64,000 nt of DNA from a virus (IMGVR_UViG_3300045588_000033:1-64000), one strand, 5' to 3'. Counted from the first letter of the stretch, positions 2,574 to 15,271 are shown. The notes: a model not told the origin generated them from the sequence alone. Numbers and translations are program-made.

Positions 2574-2852
2574 TTATTTTTTAAATTTAGGACTACATCC
2601 AAATAATATTGTATTTTTAAATGATTGCTTAAAAATCTTGTGTTTGATTTTATAAAGCTTAGTAGTATTTTCTACTATTTCATCAAAGACAGACTCTTCT
2701 ATCTCATAGTCCATAAAAGGTATCTCTCTTTGTCCTCTTTCATTTACTGTAGAGTTTTTCAACAACTCATCAAATGATGCAGCGGGAGTTGCATTTGCAA
2801 ACAACTCCCTATAACAATGCATTATTGCTTTATCAATGTTCTTATTTGTCAT
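2574..2852 (-). CDS. Hypothetical protein (likely start MTNKNIDK)
   Basis: ORF 2574..2933 with the start shortened to reduce overlap. Confidence 0.65.
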   Translation of the reverse strand: MTNKNIDKAIMHCYRELFANATPAASFDELLKNSTVNERGQREIPFMDYEIEESVFDEIVENTTKLYKIKHKIFKQSFKNTILFGCSPKFKK

Positions 2853-3093
2853 TCTTTTTTCTTTTAGTTTCCTCAAGAGGATTAAAATACTTATCCCATT
2901 TAGAAAAATGTATTGATTTAATAGTTGCTGCATCTATCATATCCATGTTACCTTTTTTTTCAGCAAGTTTTTCTAATGCTAAATGAATTAAATCTGCTGT
3001 AACATAATCTATATGAATTCCTACCATGTTAAGTGCTACTAATAAATAGTGCTGCTTATCTTCATAATCTTTAATTTCTACTTTTCTTTCCAT
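2842..3093 (-). CDS. Hypothetical protein
   Basis: 83-aa ORF. Confidence 0.65.
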   Translation of the reverse strand: MERKVEIKDYEDKQHYLLVALNMVGIHIDYVTADLIHLALEKLAEKKGNMDMIDAATIKSIHFSKWDKYFNPLEETKRKKNDK

Positions 3094-3119
3094 AATTTAG
3101 ATTTTAGATTGTTAATAAT

Positions 3120-3262
3120 TGGTGGCTCTAGTGGGAATCGAACCCACCTTGTATACTGTAATATGTAATATGAATATGAAGGAGAGCTACTCACCCATAC
3201 TTCTCTATTTATTACCTCTACCCACTCACAGTTCAGGAGCTACCTTTACCTGTTATAGAGCC
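3120..3262 (-). ncRNA. tRNA-like RNA (143 nt) with a ~68-nt insert in place of the anticodon loop
   Basis: Acceptor stem GGCTCTA/TAGAGCC, discriminator A, encoded CCA, T arm GTGGG-TTCGATT-CCCAC, D-like stem CAGG/CCTG, anticodon-like stem ACTGT/ACAGT. Confidence 0.7.
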
Positions 3263-3471
3263 ATGTACGGGTCTTTCCCCGATTGTCACCATTGCCAATT
3301 TTGCGCATCAACTTGGACTTGCTTCCTAAAAGCTTTTTCTCCTATCTATTTAGAGCTGACCATTGGTTTTCACTCTCACTTCTTAATCAGTGATTTACTT
3401 CACTTAAAATAAATGCTGCAAATACTACAATTGCAATTATAAGATATTCCATTGTTATTTAATTTAATTAG

Positions 3472-3625
3472 TAGTCAGGACAGGAGCTGCCCCTGCACGT
3501 AACTTAGGTTTTCCGCTTTCACTTTTTTAGACCCTCCGTGAAATTGTTAGATGTGTCCTCACCAGTTATCCCTGTTACAGACCAAACTCTACCTCTTGCG
3601 TCTCTCATATTTCCGCCACCTGACT
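3472..3625 (-). ncRNA. Degenerate class II (Leu-like) tRNA frame (154 nt) with large central insert
   Basis: Acceptor stem AGTCAGG/CCTGACT, 5' TGGCGGAA...AGACGC D arm, T stem GCAGG/CCTGT with non-canonical loop GGCAGCT. Confidence 0.55.
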
Positions 3626-4169
3626 ATATTACTATTAGCTCTTTAGCATTCTACTCCCAGCTCCGAGGAATTGTATCTTACTTAGCCCATCTCACCGCTG
3701 TACGGGTACTAAAGTTTACTAATAGTTGAGGTTGAGAATTCCTCTGTGTTATAGAGAACTTATACTCTAATTTTTAGTACTCCTCATCTCATAACGGTTT
3801 GCTTACCGTATCGGGAATAACACATTTAATAAAACTAAGGCGTATTACACTATACTACTTTCTCTTACGAGCCTGTGACAGTTCTAGCTGCCCATTTCCT
3901 TAGTTTTAACAACATACCCTGTCAGCCCAAGTTGCTGAATATATTATATAAGGCTTAAATCCTATACACGACTTTCACCCATGAGCCTAGTCTAATATCC
4001 TTCCACAAACAACTCCACCTTGGTATGGATTCTAACCTTCTTTAGACTCTTGCTTACGTAGGGCCCTATAGTTTTCTTTTAATATTGGTTATTCATTTGC
4101 TTCCAGCAGGGTAATTTTATACTGTGCCAAAATTGTAAAATAATTATGCGTTTGGCGGATTATAAATTT

Positions 4170-4224
4170 TCATAACAAGGTATAAGCGCAATTGAAAAAA
4201 ACTGCGCCTATACGGATGTTAGGT
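4170..4224 (-). repeat. attC-like site 1
   Basis: TCATAAC 4170-4176, arms GTATAAGCGCA/TGCGCCTATAC (10/11), GTTAGGT 4218-4224. Confidence 0.75.
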
Positions 4225-4225
4225 G

Positions 4226-4537
4226 CTATTGTAAAGACAACCACTCCTCACCTTTAGCAGTTATTTCAAAATCTCCCCTACAACCACAGCTACAACCATC
4301 AACTAAACCACGTTTCATTAATTGCCTCATTTTTGCTAAAATCAATTTTTCAGAAGCAATATTTTTAGGCATTACATTTCTGACATCTCTATCATTTTCA
4401 AAATACCAGTTACACCAATGCCCTTTGTGTTTTAGCAAAAATTCCATAATAGGTTTGTCTGGTATCTCTTTACATTGAGAAACAACAGCACCTAACACGG
4501 GTTTGGCAAAAAAGCCGTTTTGTTCTTCGTTTGACAT
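4226..4537 (-). CDS. Cassette protein, wHTH-like with CxCGC motif; start codon lies inside the loop of site 2
   Basis: 103-aa ORF, LMKRGLVDGCSCGCRGDFEITAKG; stop abuts site 1. Confidence 0.75.
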   Translation of the reverse strand: MSNEEQNGFFAKPVLGAVVSQCKEIPDKPIMEFLLKHKGHWCNWYFENDRDVRNVMPKNIASEKLILAKMRQLMKRGLVDGCSCGCRGDFEITAKGEEWLSLQ

Positions 4538-4615
4538 ATTGTTCTAATTTTTAAGTTTTGTGCTTCGATTTAGCTTTTCGTTTCGGCTTCTTCGCCAAGC
4601 CCGAACCCGTTAGCG
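4490..4615 (-). repeat. attC-like site 2
   Basis: ACCTAAC 4490-4496, arms 4498-4517/4584-4603 (17/20), GTTAGCG 4609-4615. Confidence 0.8.
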
Positions 4616-4621
4616 GTCAGT

Positions 4622-4918
4622 TTAGTGAGAAGCATTGTAATAACCACTCCAAATTTTCTCTTTGCACTCAAATAAATTTGATAATTGTTTACCTAAATTA
4701 TATTCACGCATTGGGTTTCTGCAACTATCTATTTCTTTTTCTAAGTCTTTAATTCTTTGCTCGACCATTTGCTCAAACATTTCAGGAATATTATCTTGAA
4801 TTTCTTTTACTATTTCATTTTGAAATTTTGCCAAATCTTCTAATTCTTTACGTTTTGGAATACCTAACATAAATTTAGTAGTTAGCTTTAATAATTTATT
4901 TGTTACTTTTTTTGACAT
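4622..4918 (-). CDS. Cassette protein, helical hypothetical (likely start MSKKV)
   Basis: ORF 4622..4954 between sites 3 and 2. Confidence 0.7.
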   Translation of the reverse strand: MSKKVTNKLLKLTTKFMLGIPKRKELEDLAKFQNEIVKEIQDNIPEMFEQMVEQRIKDLEKEIDSCRNPMREYNLGKQLSNLFECKEKIWSGYYNASH

Positions 4919-4945
4919 AATATTTATTTGTTTAGAAAACCGAAC

Positions 4946-5080
4946 CGCTAACACTCGTTTTGTGCTATTACGGCAATTTCAGTTAATATTAAATTTTGTT
5001 GTTACGTTCACGTTTTTCGGTAGCCGAAAAACCTCTTTTCGCTTAGTGCCGTAACATCACAAAGCGAGATAACGTTATCA
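4946..5080 (-). repeat. attC-like site 3
   Basis: CGCTAAC 4946-4952, arms 4954-4975/5047-5068 (19/22), inner hairpin GTTTTTCGG/CCGAAAAAC, GTTATCA 5074-5080. Confidence 0.8.
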
Positions 5081-5362
5081 AACATTGATACGTTTTCTGT
5101 AACCGTTGCAAATATCAAGAATGAAATCTATTCTGTTTTCTTCTGTATCAAAACCAGTCATCATTTCTTCAAGAGTATCTTTCAGTATTCCCACTTGCTC
5201 ATCAATAAGTTTGTGCTTTTGTTTTTGCAGATATTCTTCAGCGTATTGACTACACATCAATTGTATTTTATACCTTCCCATTTCAGAGTTCCCAAACTTA
5301 TCAATAATCTCGTAAGCCATTTCTTGAATGGTTTTCTCTCTATCTATTTTTACTCTTTCCAT
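5078..5362 (-). CDS. Cassette protein, hypothetical
   Basis: 94-aa ORF; TGA stop overlaps the core of site 3. Confidence 0.7.
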   Translation of the reverse strand: MERVKIDREKTIQEMAYEIIDKFGNSEMGRYKIQLMCSQYAEEYLQKQKHKLIDEQVGILKDTLEEMMTGFDTEENRIDFILDICNGYRKRINV

Positions 5363-5404
5363 AATTCGAATTTTAGTTCATTTATAATCTTTTCCGCAAC
5401 GCTT

Positions 5405-5458
5405 TGCTAACAATAGATAAGCGCAACTTTGCAGTCGCTTATCTATATCACGTTATAA
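5405..5458 (-). repeat. attC-like site 4
   Basis: TGCTAAC 5405-5411, arms ATAGATAAGCG/CGCTTATCTAT (11/11), GTTATAA 5452-5458. Confidence 0.8.
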
Positions 5459-5695
5459 ATCAGTTTGCTTTTTACCAGTTCCTTTACACCAATCACAATC
5501 ACTTATCAATAGTTTGCCTGAACCTGAACAAGCAATGCAAACCGAACTTATAACAGTAGGTTGGTGCAATTTACTTAGTATCGCATCCGAAACAATATCG
5601 AAGTTATCTTCGTGTATCGCTTTTTCAGTTCTGCTACGGTCAATATATCCGCCATATTCTTTTAATAATTCAATAATTTCGTGCTTCGTTATCAT
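5453..5695 (-). CDS. Chimeric protein: N-terminus encoded in site 5 plus DnaJ-type zinc finger (CxxCxGxG x2) from the next cassette
   Basis: 80-aa ORF; CIACSGSG...CDWCKGTG; TAA stop is part of the TAAC core of site 4. Confidence 0.75.
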   Translation of the reverse strand: MITKHEIIELLKEYGGYIDRSRTEKAIHEDNFDIVSDAILSKLHQPTVISSVCIACSGSGKLLISDCDWCKGTGKKQTDL

Positions 5696-5745
5696 AATAT
5701 TTTATTTTTAATTCGTAAACTCCACCAACCTACATTACGTTATAA
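5548..5745 (-). repeat. attC-like site 5 (long protein-coding loop)
   Basis: TTATAAC 5548-5554, arms GTAGGTTGGTG/CACCAACCTAC (11/11), GTTATAA 5739-5745. Confidence 0.75.
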
Positions 5746-5749
5746 GCAA

Positions 5750-6049
5750 TTATGCTTCTTTTAGTGGTAGCCAAATTTCGGTATCTACAAAGCATTTTTC
5801 TTTACCTGATAAAGCATTGTACTTTTTAACATAGTCTTCTGCTACTTCTTTTGTGGTACAAACAACGTCTTCATTATTATTATCGTACCATCTTACAATT
5901 GCATAACTTCCAATAACAGCATCTTGGCTCAATGCGAGTTTCTTTTCCATCCAATCAGAATATGCAGGTATGTTGTCGCTAAATACCAAATCTGTTTCAC
6001 GAGAATATTCAATCCTCAATTTCATTCTTTGTTCACTTACTTTATTCAT
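5750..6049 (-). CDS. Chimeric hypothetical protein (likely start MNKVSEQ inside the loop of site 6)
   Basis: ORF 5750..6136; crosses site 6 at LSQDAVIGS. Confidence 0.7.
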   Translation of the reverse strand: MNKVSEQRMKLRIEYSRETDLVFSDNIPAYSDWMEKKLALSQDAVIGSYAIVRWYDNNNEDVVCTTKEVAEDYVKKYNALSGKEKCFVDTEIWLPLKEA

Positions 6050-6104
6050 TCTATTATATTTTTCGTTAATAATTCGCACTAAGCCAAGTTGCATTCCGTT
6101 ATAT
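5911..6104 (-). repeat. attC-like site 6 (long protein-coding loop)
   Basis: CAATAAC 5911-5917, arms 5919-5937/6074-6092 (16/19), GTTATAT 6098-6104. Confidence 0.75.
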
Positions 6105-6703: not shown

Positions 6704-7219
6704 TTAAATACCTAATGCGTCAGCAATTGCTGAATTACCTGTAACAGCTTGACGAGTTGTCTCAGCGATTAAAGTATGCTTAGCCTCACCCAATACTACA
6801 GAAGTATTTACGTAGATATACAAACCATCTTTAGACATGATGAAATCACCGTCTTTACCTGCACGCTTTGCTCTTCTTTCAAAGTTAGCTACATCATAAT
6901 CTGATCCAGCAGTAGTCTCAGTAATTTGAAGATTCAAAGAACGATCATCTCCTGCAATTTTAGGATCAACCATATCAATTTCTAATTCTTCTCCTTCTGC
7001 TAATGCAGAAACATCTAGACCAAATTGTAATTGAACATCTGCAGGTTGTGCAGATAACCAAGCATAACGAGGCTTAGACTGATTAAATCTTTCGTCAGAA
7101 GCATTCAAGATGCCCAACAAACCTGTTGGAGTCTTTCCTGTTTCTACAATTTGAGAGAAAGTTAATTGTACTTTTCCACCTTTGATTCCTTTTGCTGATA
7201 CTAATGTTACTTTTTTCAT
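6704..7219 (-). CDS. Early protein of unknown function
   Basis: 171-aa ORF with its own terminator. Confidence 0.8.
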   Translation of the reverse strand: MKKVTLVSAKGIKGGKVQLTFSQIVETGKTPTGLLGILNASDERFNQSKPRYAWLSAQPADVQLQFGLDVSALAEGEELEIDMVDPKIAGDDRSLNLQITETTAGSDYDVANFERRAKRAGKDGDFIMSKDGLYIYVNTSVVLGEAKHTLIAETTRQAVTGNSAIADALGI

Positions 7220-7414
7220 AATAATTTTGTTTTTTAAAGATAAATAATTTATAGATTTTGCTCTAAAACACAGACTTATAAAGTCTTTTCACATACACGA
7301 GCATGTACATAAAATGTAATTTGGTTGTATTTTTTCGACGATGCTAACAACCATTACTAATAAATGAAAGAACTGTTCATCGCAGTAAATAAATAGATTT
7401 CATTCTATTTAATT

Positions 7415-7446
7415 AAAAAAGATAGTGGGACACGCTTCTCCCACTA
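7415..7446 (-). terminator. Intrinsic terminator
   Basis: TAGTGGGA/TCCCACTA stem followed by TCTTTTTT on the minus strand. Confidence 0.55.
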
Positions 7447-7719
7447 AGAACTTACCTAACCTAACTAAACTACTATAACCATTAAACTAGCACCCTTTGA
7501 CTTGTAAACAAGAATAGGGTCATATAGTAAGAGGTATTCTATACATGATATATAGACTGTGACACATTACTATTTGCTGAGAGCTCATTTGCATTGTATA
7601 GGACTATTTATGTCTCTATATGTTTTTAGTCTTGCTTTCTCAAGGCAACAATACATTACGTATTTCTACGTATATCCAATTTTTAAACAGGCTTATCAAT
7701 GTTTAGTCCTGTGGCATCC

Positions 7720-7974
7720 TTAGTTTAATGCATGCTTGCGGTTAATAGCTGTATTAGCTATCACCGCTATTTTAATACCAGCTTCAAAAGTCCAAAGCTT
7801 GGTAAATTTATATTTAGTACGATCTGATTCCTTGTGTAAATACTTAGAATACAAATCATCCTCAATGTTTTTTATTAGCCCATCATCATCAGGAGAGATA
7901 ATGTTGTATACAAGAACATCATCTTCATCGAAAATAAGTTCTAATCTATATATGTAATCATTTTCAAAGTCCAT
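7720..7974 (-). CDS. Hypothetical protein
   Basis: 84-aa ORF. Confidence 0.6.
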   Translation of the reverse strand: MDFENDYIYRLELIFDEDDVLVYNIISPDDDGLIKNIEDDLYSKYLHKESDRTKYKFTKLWTFEAGIKIAVIANTAINRKHALN

Positions 7975-9801: not shown

Positions 9802-10605
9802 ATGAGCAAAAATAAAAGTAAAACTAAAAGCGTTAGAAAGAGAATGTTCTATGATATAGAGGTTTCTTATTTCATAGTTAGTGCTTGGAGATTAGGATAT
9901 AATCTTTCTATCCAACCACATCAGATTATTAAGTACCCTTCCGTAATTTGCCTATCATGGAAGTGGGAAGGTGAGGAAGAAGTTCATAATCTTAGATGGG
10001 ATGATGATCAGTGTGATAAAACTCTAATACAGGACTTTGTCAAGGAGCTTAATAAAGCCAATCAAATAGTAGCACATAACGGAGATAGATTTGATTTAAA
10101 ATGGTTACGCACAAGAGCAGTCCTACACGGGCTACACATGAACCCTAGATATGAAACTATAGATACTCTTAAAATAGCTAAGTCACAATTTAGTTTTGCT
10201 TCTAATAAACTAGATGAACTAGGAAAATACTTAGGAGTAGGACAGAAGATACCTACTGATTACTCTTTATGGGACAAAATATGCCAAGAGAAATCTGAAG
10301 ATGCACTTAACGATATGGTTAAATACTGCGATGAAGATGTTAGACTTTTAGAGCGAGTGTATCAAAAATTAAGACCTTACGCTAAGGCTCAGTTTAACTA
10401 CGGCAAACTTTACGGCAATGATAACTTTGCTTGCCCAGAATGTGGAAGTCTACACCCAAGGGTTACTAAATGCTACACTACTGCAATGGGAGTAAGAAGA
10501 TATTACTTGCAATGTAAAGAGAGCAAATGCCAAACTAATTACCCTGTAAGTAACCGTACGTACCTCAAAATGATAGAGCACCAAATACTAAATCCAATAA
10601 TTTAA
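9802..10605 (+). CDS. DnaQ/RNase H-like 3'-5' exonuclease (DEDDy) with C-terminal zinc ribbon
   Basis: YDIE, HNGDRFD, YCDEDV motifs; CPECG...CKESKC. Confidence 0.85.
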   Translation: MSKNKSKTKSVRKRMFYDIEVSYFIVSAWRLGYNLSIQPHQIIKYPSVICLSWKWEGEEEVHNLRWDDDQCDKTLIQDFVKELNKANQIVAHNGDRFDLKWLRTRAVLHGLHMNPRYETIDTLKIAKSQFSFASNKLDELGKYLGVGQKIPTDYSLWDKICQEKSEDALNDMVKYCDEDVRLLERVYQKLRPYAKAQFNYGKLYGNDNFACPECGSLHPRVTKCYTTAMGVRRYYLQCKESKCQTNYPVSNRTYLKMIEHQILNPII

Positions 10606-12592: not shown

Positions 12593-13097
12593 TAATAATT
12601 ATTGGGAAGTAAACTCAGAGTATTTATTACTGACTGAGTTTTCTCAGTTTTATAATAAAGATAAATCTAAAGGCAAAGAGGAAAGCTCAAGAGTAATGTG
12701 GGCTGTTAATTATGCTTTTAATCCTGAGTCTAAATTCTTTCATTATCCAAATAAATTAGAGGTATTATCTAAGGACTTTATAAAAATCGCTAAGTTTAAA
12801 TGGGATAGCATACAAAGTGTCATAGATGTATTTAAAAACCTAGTACTATCTGATGCAGAGAAATCATTAGTAAACTGGAGTGAGATAATGGTACTCAGAG
12901 ATAATTCCTTAAAGGATCTCTATAGAAATGCTATTCAAGCAGGGGACACTGACGAGTTAGTTAAACTAGATAAGATGTTGAGCAACACGCCTAAGATGTT
13001 TGAGGATTATAAGAAAATCAAGAGAGATTACGAAGAAGAGAAGACTACCAAAAAAGGTAAGTCTATTGCATCACTATCAGATAGCGGAGAAATATGA
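12576..13097 (+). CDS. Hypothetical protein upstream of terminase (candidate small subunit)
   Basis: 173-aa ORF with ATGA overlap onto terL; assignment positional only. Confidence 0.55.
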   Translation: MKAAHDNNYWEVNSEYLLLTEFSQFYNKDKSKGKEESSRVMWAVNYAFNPESKFFHYPNKLEVLSKDFIKIAKFKWDSIQSVIDVFKNLVLSDAEKSLVNWSEIMVLRDNSLKDLYRNAIQAGDTDELVKLDKMLSNTPKMFEDYKKIKRDYEEEKTTKKGKSIASLSDSGEI

Positions 13098-15271
13098 TAA
13101 TAGAAAATTCTAATTTTAGACTTAAAGATATTCCTAATTATCATCCTGAATTAGAATACTATGAACGTATTGCTTTTTGGAAAGAAGAAAAGCGTAAGTG
13201 CATAGAAGGTTATTGGGTTGGTGGAAAATGGATGCCAGGGCCTCTATACTACTACATCAACTTTCACAATATACAATTTGAAGACGACACATCTGTAGCA
13301 CAAGCATTTGGTCTGCCTTTTCTACGCGATATAGATTGGGAATTATTTCTTATCTATGACGAGTGTAGGGGCTTTTCAGGATTCACAGGGGACAAGGTTT
13401 ATACATGCGATAGAAGATATGGCCCAGATAAGGCAATTTCTATTACGCTTAAAAGGATTACTGAAGCAGAATCTCAGAAAATGACTTACGTTCCCGCAAG
13501 AGAATACTTAAGAAGAAACCACGGTAAATCTTTAGGTAAGCCTTTATACAAAAATGCAGCAAAGCATTTTATGTCTATACAAGCGAGGGGGTCAGGTAAG
13601 TCTTATTCTACTTCAGCAATAGTTGCCCATAACTTCTTATTTGATGGAGCTACAGACTACGATGATTACTTATCAAGAAGAAAATTAAAACAATATACTT
13701 CGTCAGAAAGTATCATCGGTGCGATTGATACTAAATACACCGAACCATTAGTAGCTAAGGTAAAGACGGCATTTGAATTATTACCTGGGGGATTTTCCAT
13801 AGGTGATGAAGAATACCCCGCACCGCTATTCTCAAACTACACAGGGTCGCTACAGTCTAACAAATATATTACAGCAGCACTTTCTAAATCTAAATTATAC
13901 CATAGAACCTTTAAAGATAATCCACTAGCAGCCAATGGTACTCGTGCCAACTTAGTAGCACTAGATGAGGTAGGTTTCATGTATAATATAAAGGAATCTT
14001 GGGGAGCTATCGAAGCTATCCAAGCAGCAAAGGCTAAGAAAAATCTTGTAATATGGGCCCTAGGAACGGGGGGACTTGTATCAGGTAGAGCAGCATTATA
14101 TGCAGAAAGTATATTTAGAAATCCACAAGATTATAACTGCGTAGAATTTGATGATGTATTTGAACATAGAGGAAAGATAGGATACTTTGTGCCGTATTCT
14201 TTAGTACAAAATGAATTTAAGAAAGGCCCTAATCTAGAAACAGATGAAGCGCTAGCAAGAGTAAATATAGAATACAGACGATCTATTGCAAAAAAATCAC
14301 CAGACCCGACTGTATATCAGACAGAAATTATCAACGGACCGATGGTTCCGAGTGAAGCCTTCTTAGTTCTTGAAGGAGCATTCTTCCCTACGCTACAACT
14401 TAAAGAACAACTAGCTGAAGTAGAGGGAGGTAAGTATAAGAAATATACAGAAGCATCCTTTAAGGGTCACATATCTTTTAACTCTGCCAACGAACCTGAG
14501 TTTTTTACAGAGCAAGATGCACAACCTATTAGAAAGTTTCCACTTAACAACAATGATGATAAAAAAAGTTGCATAGAATTATGGGTAAAACCGCAAAAGA
14601 ATGACGAAGGTGTAGTGCCGAGAGGAGTGCACATCGCAGGAATCGACGTTGTAGATAAAGATAAATCCACTACTGATTCCTTACCGTCTATAATTATATT
14701 GAATCGTTTTACTCGACAAATAGTTGCCGAGTATACAGGGCGTACAGGGGAAGCAAAAGATTTCTATGAAGTATGTCGTAAGATGTTGTTGTATTATAAT
14801 GCAATAGGAATGTATGAGAAAAACCTTATTGGTCTCTACAATTACTTTGACCAAAATAAGTGTACTTACTTACTTGCAGATACACCTTATCAATTAAGAT
14901 CTACAGATACTTATAAAGCAGGAACTAATACTTCTAAAGGTATTAACGCATCTGGTACAGTCAATGCTGAAGCAAGAAATATGATTAAGTCTTGGTTGCA
15001 AGAGAGAATCTCAGAGAAATCTGAGACAAGAGTGTACGAGACATTATATTCTTCTGCTATGATAACAGAATTAGTAATGTGGAATCCTAGTGGCAACTTT
15101 GATAGAGTTTCTGCATTAGGTATGCTAATGTGGTTAGACTCTACAATGTTCAAAGAGAACGTTAAACTTAAAGACGATATTAAAGGTTTTATGGATAATC
15201 CATATTGGGATAAGATGGGTGTTTTAAAAAAGAAACCTATCAATACTATTAATTCCAATTTTTATCCATAA
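13094..15271 (+). CDS. terL: Terminase large subunit
   Basis: Walker A ARGSGKS, Walker B VALDEVG, nuclease motifs AGIDVVD and NFDRVSA. Confidence 0.95.
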   Translation: MIIENSNFRLKDIPNYHPELEYYERIAFWKEEKRKCIEGYWVGGKWMPGPLYYYINFHNIQFEDDTSVAQAFGLPFLRDIDWELFLIYDECRGFSGFTGDKVYTCDRRYGPDKAISITLKRITEAESQKMTYVPAREYLRRNHGKSLGKPLYKNAAKHFMSIQARGSGKSYSTSAIVAHNFLFDGATDYDDYLSRRKLKQYTSSESIIGAIDTKYTEPLVAKVKTAFELLPGGFSIGDEEYPAPLFSNYTGSLQSNKYITAALSKSKLYHRTFKDNPLAANGTRANLVALDEVGFMYNIKESWGAIEAIQAAKAKKNLVIWALGTGGLVSGRAALYAESIFRNPQDYNCVEFDDVFEHRGKIGYFVPYSLVQNEFKKGPNLETDEALARVNIEYRRSIAKKSPDPTVYQTEIINGPMVPSEAFLVLEGAFFPTLQLKEQLAEVEGGKYKKYTEASFKGHISFNSANEPEFFTEQDAQPIRKFPLNNNDDKKSCIELWVKPQKNDEGVVPRGVHIAGIDVVDKDKSTTDSLPSIIILNRFTRQIVAEYTGRTGEAKDFYEVCRKMLLYYNAIGMYEKNLIGLYNYFDQNKCTYLLADTPYQLRSTDTYKAGTNTSKGINASGTVNAEARNMIKSWLQERISEKSETRVYETLYSSAMITELVMWNPSGNFDRVSALGMLMWLDSTMFKENVKLKDDIKGFMDNPYWDKMGVLKKKPINTINSNFYP

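Follow-up and report, generated by a model that had tools for sequence, protein, structure and literature searches.

The DNA analysed here, a stretch of 64,000 nucleotides taken as a whole and hereafter called the window, spans the first 64 kb of a phage record in IMG/VR that measures 91.5 kb and is 69% complete. This phage uses the standard code, and its large terminase, portal, and major head proteins have matches among the PHROGs families. The window contains a 1.1-kb tract (3094–4226) with no sense-strand ORF of at least 50 aa, be it under table 11, with TAG read as Q, or under table 4; the GC content of this tract is 0.35–0.42 vs. 0.25–0.31 in the 1.6 kb downstream. At its 3′ end lies a tRNA-shaped element carried by the minus strand (3120–3262), and the next ORF (2842–3093) has its ATG at 3093, 26 nt past the CCA that closes the element.

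Read along the minus strand from 3262 to 3120, the element consists of GGCUCUA, UA, a 26-nt segment (ACAGGUAAAGGUAGCUCCUGAACUGU), GAGUGG, a 71-nt segment, AAG, a T arm, UAGAGCC, A, and CCA. The 5′ strand of the acceptor stem P1, GGCUCUA (3256–3262), forms seven of seven pairs with its 3′ strand, UAGAGCC (3124–3130), and is followed by a U8-A9 linker (3254–3255) and by a two-tier hairpin in the D-arm position, P2 (3228–3253), with a basal stem ACAG/CUGU, an apical stem AGG/CCU, a UAGCU loop, and internal loops. Then come a G-rich junction J2/3, GAGUGG(GU) (3222–3227), the arm P3 in the anticodon-arm position (3151–3221), and J3/4, AAG, in the variable-loop position (3148–3150). The T arm P4, GUGGG-UUCGAUU-CCCAC (3131–3147), precedes the 3′ strand of P1, and the discriminator A73 (3123) with an encoded CCA (3122–3120) ends the element (3120–3123). 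Reading the sequence bears out, in letters and in pairing, the acceptor stem, the canonical T arm, A73, and the CCA that an initial annotation of this DNA had pointed out.

Several features of a canonical tRNA are there, namely the 7-bp acceptor stem, the discriminator base, and a UUCRANY-type T-loop arm; the anticodon arm (a 5-bp stem with a 7-nt loop carrying U33 and a purine at position 37) is missing, and RF00005 gave no match at E ≤ 10. The annotation tools suggested by the initial annotation returned little: ARAGORN in its default, intron, and tmRNA modes found nothing, over the whole window and, with introns allowed, over this stretch, and no Rfam model reached its gathering score in the window, the sole match at E ≤ 10, chance hits aside, being that of the 17-nt T arm to the tmRNA model. 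Taken alone, the T arm scores 15.5 bits (E 4e-4) against the T arm of this model, which belongs to the tRNA clan. The element is not a tmRNA, in agreement with the initial annotation: position 3:70 is C3:G70 and not G3:U70, ARAGORN makes no tmRNA call, and the Rfam match covers these 17 nt only.

Other units of the tract

A strong terminator-like hairpin of 14 pairs with a T-rich tail (4180–4213, minus strand) stands at the head of the tract, directly after ORF 4226–4537. The first 18 codons of that ORF (4484–4537, minus strand) encode an N-terminal peptide, MSNEEQNGFFAKPVLGAV, with 89–100% conservation in 37 viral contigs that are otherwise unrelated, and this conservation does not extend to the remainder of the protein; this suggests a shared leader, an exchange point, or a conserved DNA site at gene starts. 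The segment adjoins a cassette-like array (4170–6104). The 5′ modules of the tract, at 3830–4167 (minus strand), are 71–94% identical across the loci L045, L047, L060/L065, and L063/L064 and have no Rfam match; they include a unit whose closing stem is TACCCTG/CAGGGTA and a hairpin closed by TAAAACTAAGG/CCTTAGTTTTA, and they look like further structured RNAs. Two more modules recur in the tRNA clusters of other phages: an 82-nt block starting with GTACCCGTACAGCGGTGAGATGGGC (3638–3719, minus strand), which is 85–90% identical in L074, L081, L086, L095, and L100, and the motif CACAGAGGAATTCTCAACCTCAAC (3724–3754, minus strand), which carries a GAGG/CCTC hairpin, is present in up to three copies per contig, and ends, in L086 and L095, exactly at the 5′ end of a 150-nt member of the RNA family described below. 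Tiny hydrophobic ORFs lie between the tRNA-like units, such as MEYLIIAIVVFAAFILSEVNH in the window (21 aa; 3387–3452, minus strand), with 99% DNA conservation in L045, and a 34-aa one in L045 (~4670–4775, minus strand).

A second family of tRNA-framed units, of 66–154 nt, alternates with small ORFs in the locus. Its ends are near-constant, TAGTCAGGTG(GCGGAAT)... on one side and ...CAGGTTCGAATCCTGTCCTGACTAC on the other, and its interiors are unrelated. Units lie at 3472–3625 in the window (minus strand), 4132–4237 in L065, 4653–4759 in L047, and 4786–4856 in L045; the genome of one relative holds six or more copies of 66–127 nt, those of L064 being located at 7069–7173, 7340–7425, 7689–7754, 12963–13075, 13860–13986, and 15025–15132. 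Five contigs have such a unit with its end 6 nt upstream of a 150-nt family member. Rfam scores some of the units as tRNA (30–41 bits) even though they have no anticodon stem, and the window unit has its T loop altered to GGCAGCU. One compensated change, C-G to A-U, lends support to a long hairpin shared by the L047 unit and the L064 unit starting at 15025. At 4462–4578 of L047 (minus strand), a sequence unrelated to the window element presents a tRNA frame closed by GGTTAGG/CCTAACC, with a canonical D arm, a T arm GTGCG-TTCGAGT-CGCAC, and about 53 nt between ATTGG and CCAAT; ARAGORN calls it a tRNA-Ala(agc) with a 44-nt intron, and its loop is devoid of U33.

A family of tRNA-shaped phage RNAs

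Homologues were first searched for by scanning metagenomes with the 20-mer that runs from the T loop to the discriminator, and two kinds of locus were returned: four tRNAs of 72 nt that match the element exactly in acceptor stem and T arm and have CUCUAAA as their anticodon loop, and three elements of 149–151 nt that have in common with the window copy a 5′ GGCU(C/U)UAUA, GUGAGUGGGUA, and ACAAGG ahead of the T arm. Pattern scans of IMG/VR and the covariance model R1, built from the homologues, gave 39 loci scoring 88–171 bits, plus the window copy, which collapse to 27 distinct sequences of 140–179 nt; these were fished with conserved sequence patterns, so that the sample is biased toward similar copies. 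The window element belongs to this family of 145–180-nt tRNA-shaped RNAs, the 27 distinct members of which include it: it scores 94.2 bits against R1 (E 1.4e-19), as the sole match in the 91.5-kb record, and this score, together with the Rfam match of the T arm, shows that the resemblance is not fortuitous.

Apart from the T arm, and ordinary tRNAs aside, the window and four member loci found no match in Rfam 15 at E ≤ 1, and blastn matched neither the window tract nor a typical member to GenBank phages (50,697 phage records for the typical member). The family is thus apparently uncatalogued; tRNA-like candidates are mentioned among the 10,006 viral candidate RNAs catalogued in 2023 (PMC10690425). 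As for the 72-nt tRNAs with the same acceptor stem and T arm (L066, 7223–7294, minus strand; L068, 6584–6654, minus strand; L069, 191–262, plus strand; L071, 1414–1485, minus strand), they have a CUA anticodon, i.e., of the amber-suppressor type, and each stands alone behind a promoter-like box in other phage contigs. They may share an ancestral tRNA with the frame of the 150-nt family.

The family fold was defined by the agreement between the single-sequence folds of most members and RNAalifold. It comprises a 7-bp acceptor stem, P1, stacked on the 5-bp T stem, a “TA” after the acceptor stem that is invariant in 27 of 27 members, a P2 hairpin of 22–30 nt, the two-tier shape of which recurs in most members, with UAGCU or UCGCU as the usual loop, and a G-rich J2/3 junction, GAGUGGGU, within which GAGTGGGT is nearly invariant. 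This junction is a candidate partner of the T loop at the elbow, where it could mimic the G18-G19 contact. The third arm, long and rod-like, begins with P3a, GUAAAU/AUUUAC, and continues with a conserved internal loop, P3b, and P3c up to P3d, CUCC/GGAG, which closes a near-invariant apical loop of 14 nt, UUAAUACUAGGAUC; such near-invariance would imply a specific partner. The UACUAG motif of this loop is found in 25 of the 27 members and is missing from the window copy. After P3 come AAG, within an ACAAGG that the family conserves ahead of the T arm, then the T arm itself, whose UUCGAUU loop is invariant and whose stem covaries, position 73 (A in 24 of 27 members, G in 3), and C74.

Covariation was measured on an alignment of 21 sequences, part of which had itself been fitted to the structure of the model. 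The 36 pairs that make up P1, P3a–d, and P4 are paired in 90.6% of cells, compared with 31–45% when partners are slid by 1–3 columns, and 24 of them show double-sided changes vs. 5–11 in the slid controls, none of 500 shuffles reaching any of the five covariation measures. In P1, all six counted pairs are double-sided, the seventh, A7-U, being outside the tested structure, and members have acceptor stems as different as GGCUCUA, GGUUCUA, GACUCCA, GACCUCA, GAUCCUA, GUCCGUA, and AUCUCCG, each with its own complement. As the acceptor stems vary freely, the stem is kept as a structure and not as an identity set, which leaves the idea of a synthetase decoy, put forward by the initial annotation, without support. 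Covariation among homologues thus speaks in favour of a real RNA in the case of the family; the insert of the window copy, for its part, is unique and unconserved.

A 7-nt anticodon loop is absent from all 27 members, which means that the family is unable to decode and that its conserved interior is not an intron; the initial view of a tRNA mimic, as opposed to a decoding tRNA, is thereby supported. A decoy for anticodon nucleases is unlikely for the same reason, since there is no anticodon loop to cut.

Members of the family keep company with tRNAs: in 18 of the 21 loci examined, ARAGORN tRNAs are found on the same strand within a few hundred nucleotides, and a member typically begins a few nucleotides past the tRNA or tRNA-like unit that comes before it, with an A/T-rich ...AATAT directly ahead. 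The L073 group of members has, as judged by eye, its own TAnnTTTG-type box 13–20 nt upstream. No protein neighbour recurs near the 27 members, a given protein family being present at five loci at most. The window genome has no canonical tRNA, and its element lies in the ORF-free tract, alongside a tRNA-like unit and RNA modules that also occur in the tRNA clusters of other phages.

The window copy within the family

The window copy is the shortest member (140 nt) and the most aberrant one. Every part of the family frame, which is derived from tRNA, is present in it, namely P1, U8A9, the J2/3 junction GAGUGGGU, ACAAGG, the UUCGAUU T arm, a purine at position 73, and C74. The encoded CCA belongs to this copy alone: in 26 of 26 other members, A73-C74 is followed by A, T, or G, which does not bear out CCA as a feature of the RNA, and its presence here may be a coincidence. 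P2 has the same shape as in L079, L072, L088, and L108; compared with L079, a basal U-A pair became A-U and an apical G-C pair became A-U, two compensated changes which argue that this part of the frame stayed under selection.

The cloverleaf drawn in the initial annotation is not borne out. Its D-like stem CAGG/CCTG and its anticodon-like stem ACTGT/ACAGT do exist as letters, with about 68 nt between the two strands of the latter, and a cloverleaf made of them clashes with the family fold: the 5′ part folds as a two-tier hairpin in the 26 homologues, as do ACAG/CUGU and AGG-UAGCU-CCU in the window, and CUGU (3228–3231) is already taken by P2, the “anticodon stem” having no counterpart in any homologue. 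CAGG/CCTG (3249–3252/3234–3237) is the counterpart of the apical stem of P2 in other members, L085 among them, and is displaced in the window copy by an apparent 6-nt duplication, AGGUA(A). Nor does the self-pairing insert described earlier amount to a convincing hairpin, as the arm (3151–3221), a weakly pairing sequence unrelated to that of the family with GAG-UAGCU-CUC at its apex, folds at −12.2 kcal/mol (z −0.64), a value equalled by 50 of 200 shuffles. Of four typical family arms, three reach about −20 kcal/mol (z −2.4 to −2.8) and one, from L073, −17.1 kcal/mol (z −1.05).

Frame and arm behave very differently in this copy, a mosaic. P1 and P4 keep six of six family pairs each, and P3 only 7 of 24 (4 of 6 in P3a, 3 of 13 in P3b/c, and 0 of 5 in P3d), where every other member keeps at least 16 of 24. 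Changes hit 15 of the 31 near-invariant columns of the arm vs. 2 of 34 elsewhere (Fisher p 1.3e-4). Over the frame, the window copy is 0.61–0.76 identical to 18 of the 20 other members of the A3 alignment (0.37–0.54 to the outliers L093 and L082), and over the arm, its identity to the 20 members is 0.28–0.37; in ordinary pairs of members, arm and frame identities are alike, both at about 0.6–0.8. Nothing similar to the window arm or to the 120-nt leader that precedes the element was found in any fetched locus. A changed arm within an intact frame points to segmental replacement and not to uniform decay, and, judged from its sequence, the window copy is a divergent arm-swapped member in which unrelated sequence appears to have taken the place of the family arm.

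Synteny through the flanking small proteins P0001 and P0002 reached contigs without the RNA and was discarded, the first 18 residues of P0002 matching many unrelated contigs; the exonuclease gene (9802–10605) led to the true relatives L045 (97% aa identity) and L047 (83%), which have parts of the non-coding tract in common with the window and lack the element. L045 runs directly from ...AAATCACT into AATTATTAAC, at the point where the window inserts a block of ~264 nt (3121–3384, minus strand), made of the unique 120-nt leader and the element, with ATTA on both sides. Model R1 found no family element in the records of the four closest relatives (51–67% complete). This absence, together with the clean gap in a 97%-identical relative, indicates that the element is dispensable. 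A host tRNA or att-site origin was also considered and rejected, the 3′ 20-mer TTCGATTCCCACTAGAGCCA being absent from 185,579 species genomes; a 15-mer scan of bacterial genomes was uninformative, with 68 scattered matches over unrelated phyla vs. ~1,100 expected by chance.

It is possible, with a lower probability than the reading we favor, that the window copy is a functionless relic, i.e., a decaying copy from a tRNA cluster lost by this phage lineage, perhaps still transcribed and without a role. Canonical tRNAs are indeed absent from the window genome and its two nearest relatives (G000, G043, and G044), which fits the erosion of a former cluster, and the remoter relatives G045 and G046, with the same 5′ modules of the tract, carry 17 and 24. 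The loss of the conserved arm and loop, an arm that folds like shuffled sequence, the lack of the element in the nearest relative, and the lost T loop of the neighbouring tRNA-like unit (3472–3625) all go in the same direction. Decay should, however, be uniform, yet this copy preserves every one of the 19 near-invariant columns that fall in the junction, the T arm, and the acceptor 3′ strand (p 1.3e-4), P1 and P4 are perfect, and P2 has its two compensated changes; moreover, useless DNA is quickly shed by phage genomes. We give about 60% to the reading of the window copy as an arm-swapped member that is still processed and that carries another payload or serves mainly as a handle or cleavage site. 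More broadly, the most likely view is that of a member whose arm was swapped or which is eroding, that is made by tRNA-processing enzymes, and that cannot decode.

Processing, payload, and known counterparts

Bacterial RNase P, the 3′-end enzymes, and the CCA-adding enzyme recognise a 12-bp acceptor/T minihelix, the T loop, the G-rich junction, and A73(-CCA). As the element matches these tRNA-maturation signals, its RNA should be cut from its transcript and be stable. RNAs of the family would be transcribed together with their neighbours, cut at the 5′ end by RNase P, and trimmed at the 3′ end by the tRNA 3′-end machinery, the CCA being added by the host or, in the window copy, encoded; the product would accumulate as a stable L-shaped RNA unable to read codons, in which the tRNA frame would be the handle for processing and stability and the arm the working end, binding a putative partner. 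For the element itself, transcription, end formation, and stability are predictions drawn from sequence features. Since its arm is replaced and folds poorly and the family loop is lost, the window copy most likely no longer does the arm-dependent job; it would either carry a different short payload or owe its survival solely to being a tRNA-like processing site, located 26 nt ahead of the next gene. Among the roles suggested at the outset, a stabilised carrier and an RNase P/Z processing signal would be the most plausible ones.

A purely cis-acting role, in which the fold is kept only as an RNase P/RNase Z cleavage site between the non-coding RNAs and mini-ORF on its upstream side and the mRNA on its downstream side, the released RNA having no role, seems to us improbable. 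The parts conserved in this copy are only those that RNase P and the 3′-end enzymes read (acceptor, T arm, elbow candidates, A73, and CCA), the element ends at 3120 when the next ATG is at 3093, and the second family, TAGTCAGGTG...CAGGTTCGAATCCTGTCCTGACTAC, also combines constant ends with unrelated interiors and alternates with small ORFs; a minihelix would nevertheless suffice for such punctuation, which leaves the retention of P2 and J2/3 unexplained.

The least credible explanation, to which we give hardly any weight, is a tRNA that would become functional once proteins or self-splicing had taken out 61–68 nt, along the lines proposed for the tRNAs of Lak megaphages: there is a precedent in phage tRNA genes for short inserts without explanation (10.1101/356790, PMC6784885), other phage contigs encode 72-nt tRNAs that share the acceptor stem and T arm exactly and carry a CUA anticodon, and ARAGORN with a lowered threshold proposes a tRNA-Asn(att) with a 65-nt intron, but joining ACTGT/ACAGT with any flanking letters or deletion gives no 7-nt loop with U33, the 26 homologues have no anticodon loop and their “insert” is the conserved, covarying part, Rfam holds no intron or ribozyme match, and no RtcB or RNA ligase was found in the 69%-complete record. 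The tRNA-Asn(att) call itself was rejected, as it involves an A-A mismatch in the stem, an unused AUU anticodon, and no support from homologues. A group I intron had already been dismissed in the initial annotation, and rightly so: the insert is 68 nt long vs. a core of ~200 nt or more, no Rfam intron model matches, and the exons yield no anticodon loop. The precedent refers to the tRNA genes of Lak megaphages, said to contain “enigmatic” short introns (Devoto et al. 2019, PMC6784885; 10.1101/356790). Like the family, these are over-long, tRNA-framed phage genes missed by bacterial tRNA finders, with conserved inserts of no known intron class; they are otherwise complete tRNAs with an assignable anticodon and have insert-free alleles, whereas the family has no anticodon loop and its interior is its conserved signature.

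The closest known analogues are RNAC (species 1 RNA, 139 nt) and RNAD, from the tRNA cluster of phage T4. Like the RNAs predicted for the family, T4 RNAC is stable, measures ~140 nt, lies on the same strand at the end of a tRNA cluster, and has no anticodon; when folded, it shows a canonical T arm, CCGGG-UUCGAAU-CCCGG, beside a stem that pairs its ends, with long internal hairpins in place of the D and anticodon arms. The T4 rnaC gene has, however, no detectable homology to the family, as model R1 gives it 12.9 bits over a partial match, which is no better than ordinary T4 tRNAs; the internal architectures differ, and T4 is a coliphage of the Straboviridae whereas the family comes from uncultured phages. 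The function of RNAC is still called unknown (PMC9697503).

Family members also resemble tmRNA in having an acceptor and a T arm, an analogue of the D loop without a normal D arm, and a long helix at the anticodon-stem junction; unlike tmRNA, they vary at position 3:70, have no tag reading frame and no pseudoknots, and measure 140–180 nt and not more than 250 nt. The Y-RNA reading was discarded. In YrlA, it is reportedly the stem bound by Ro that the RNA ends make up, next to a closed tRNA-like module, whereas the ends of the window element form the acceptor stem, i.e., the opposite topology. No Rfam match to YrlA or Y RNA was obtained at E up to 10, and no TROVE/Ro60 gene (PF05731) in the 69%-complete record. 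The likeness to YrlA-type Y RNAs is that of a non-coding RNA imitating part of a tRNA, in bacteria and phages (Chen et al. 2014, PMC4201824).

Another counterpart is man-made. In the engineered “tRNA scaffold” attributed to Ponchon and Dardel in 2007, a payload hairpin placed in the anticodon stem is said to be protected by the cellular processing and folding of tRNA. The window copy has the same design, natural use of it by phages being a hypothesis. We would consider it conceivable, at a rather low probability, that phages use tRNA frames as natural, exchangeable scaffolds, with one frame for processing and stability and varied payloads in its interior. If so, the window copy would be the 150-nt family frame with a swapped arm, the second family, TAGTCAGGTG...CAGGTTCGAATCCTGTCCTGACTAC, would take the same principle further with its fully unrelated interiors, the 1.1-kb tract would be a factory in which tRNA processing sets small RNAs free, and the whole would be the natural counterpart of the engineered scaffold.

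Phage clusters have been known since T4 to hold stable tRNA-like RNAs, and, to our knowledge, T4 RNAC and RNAD are unexplained after fifty years. The present family is a second well-defined family of phage tRNA-cluster RNAs, with strong covariation, a distribution over many uncultured phages, and a model with which it can be searched; its nearly invariant loop, in all likelihood, must contact something. Should any member be found in a cultured phage, its RNA ends, its partners, and its knockout phenotype would become directly testable. The window copy, finally, indicates that an exchange of the arm can leave the tRNA frame intact, as would be expected if the frame were a module for processing and stability, separable from its payload.
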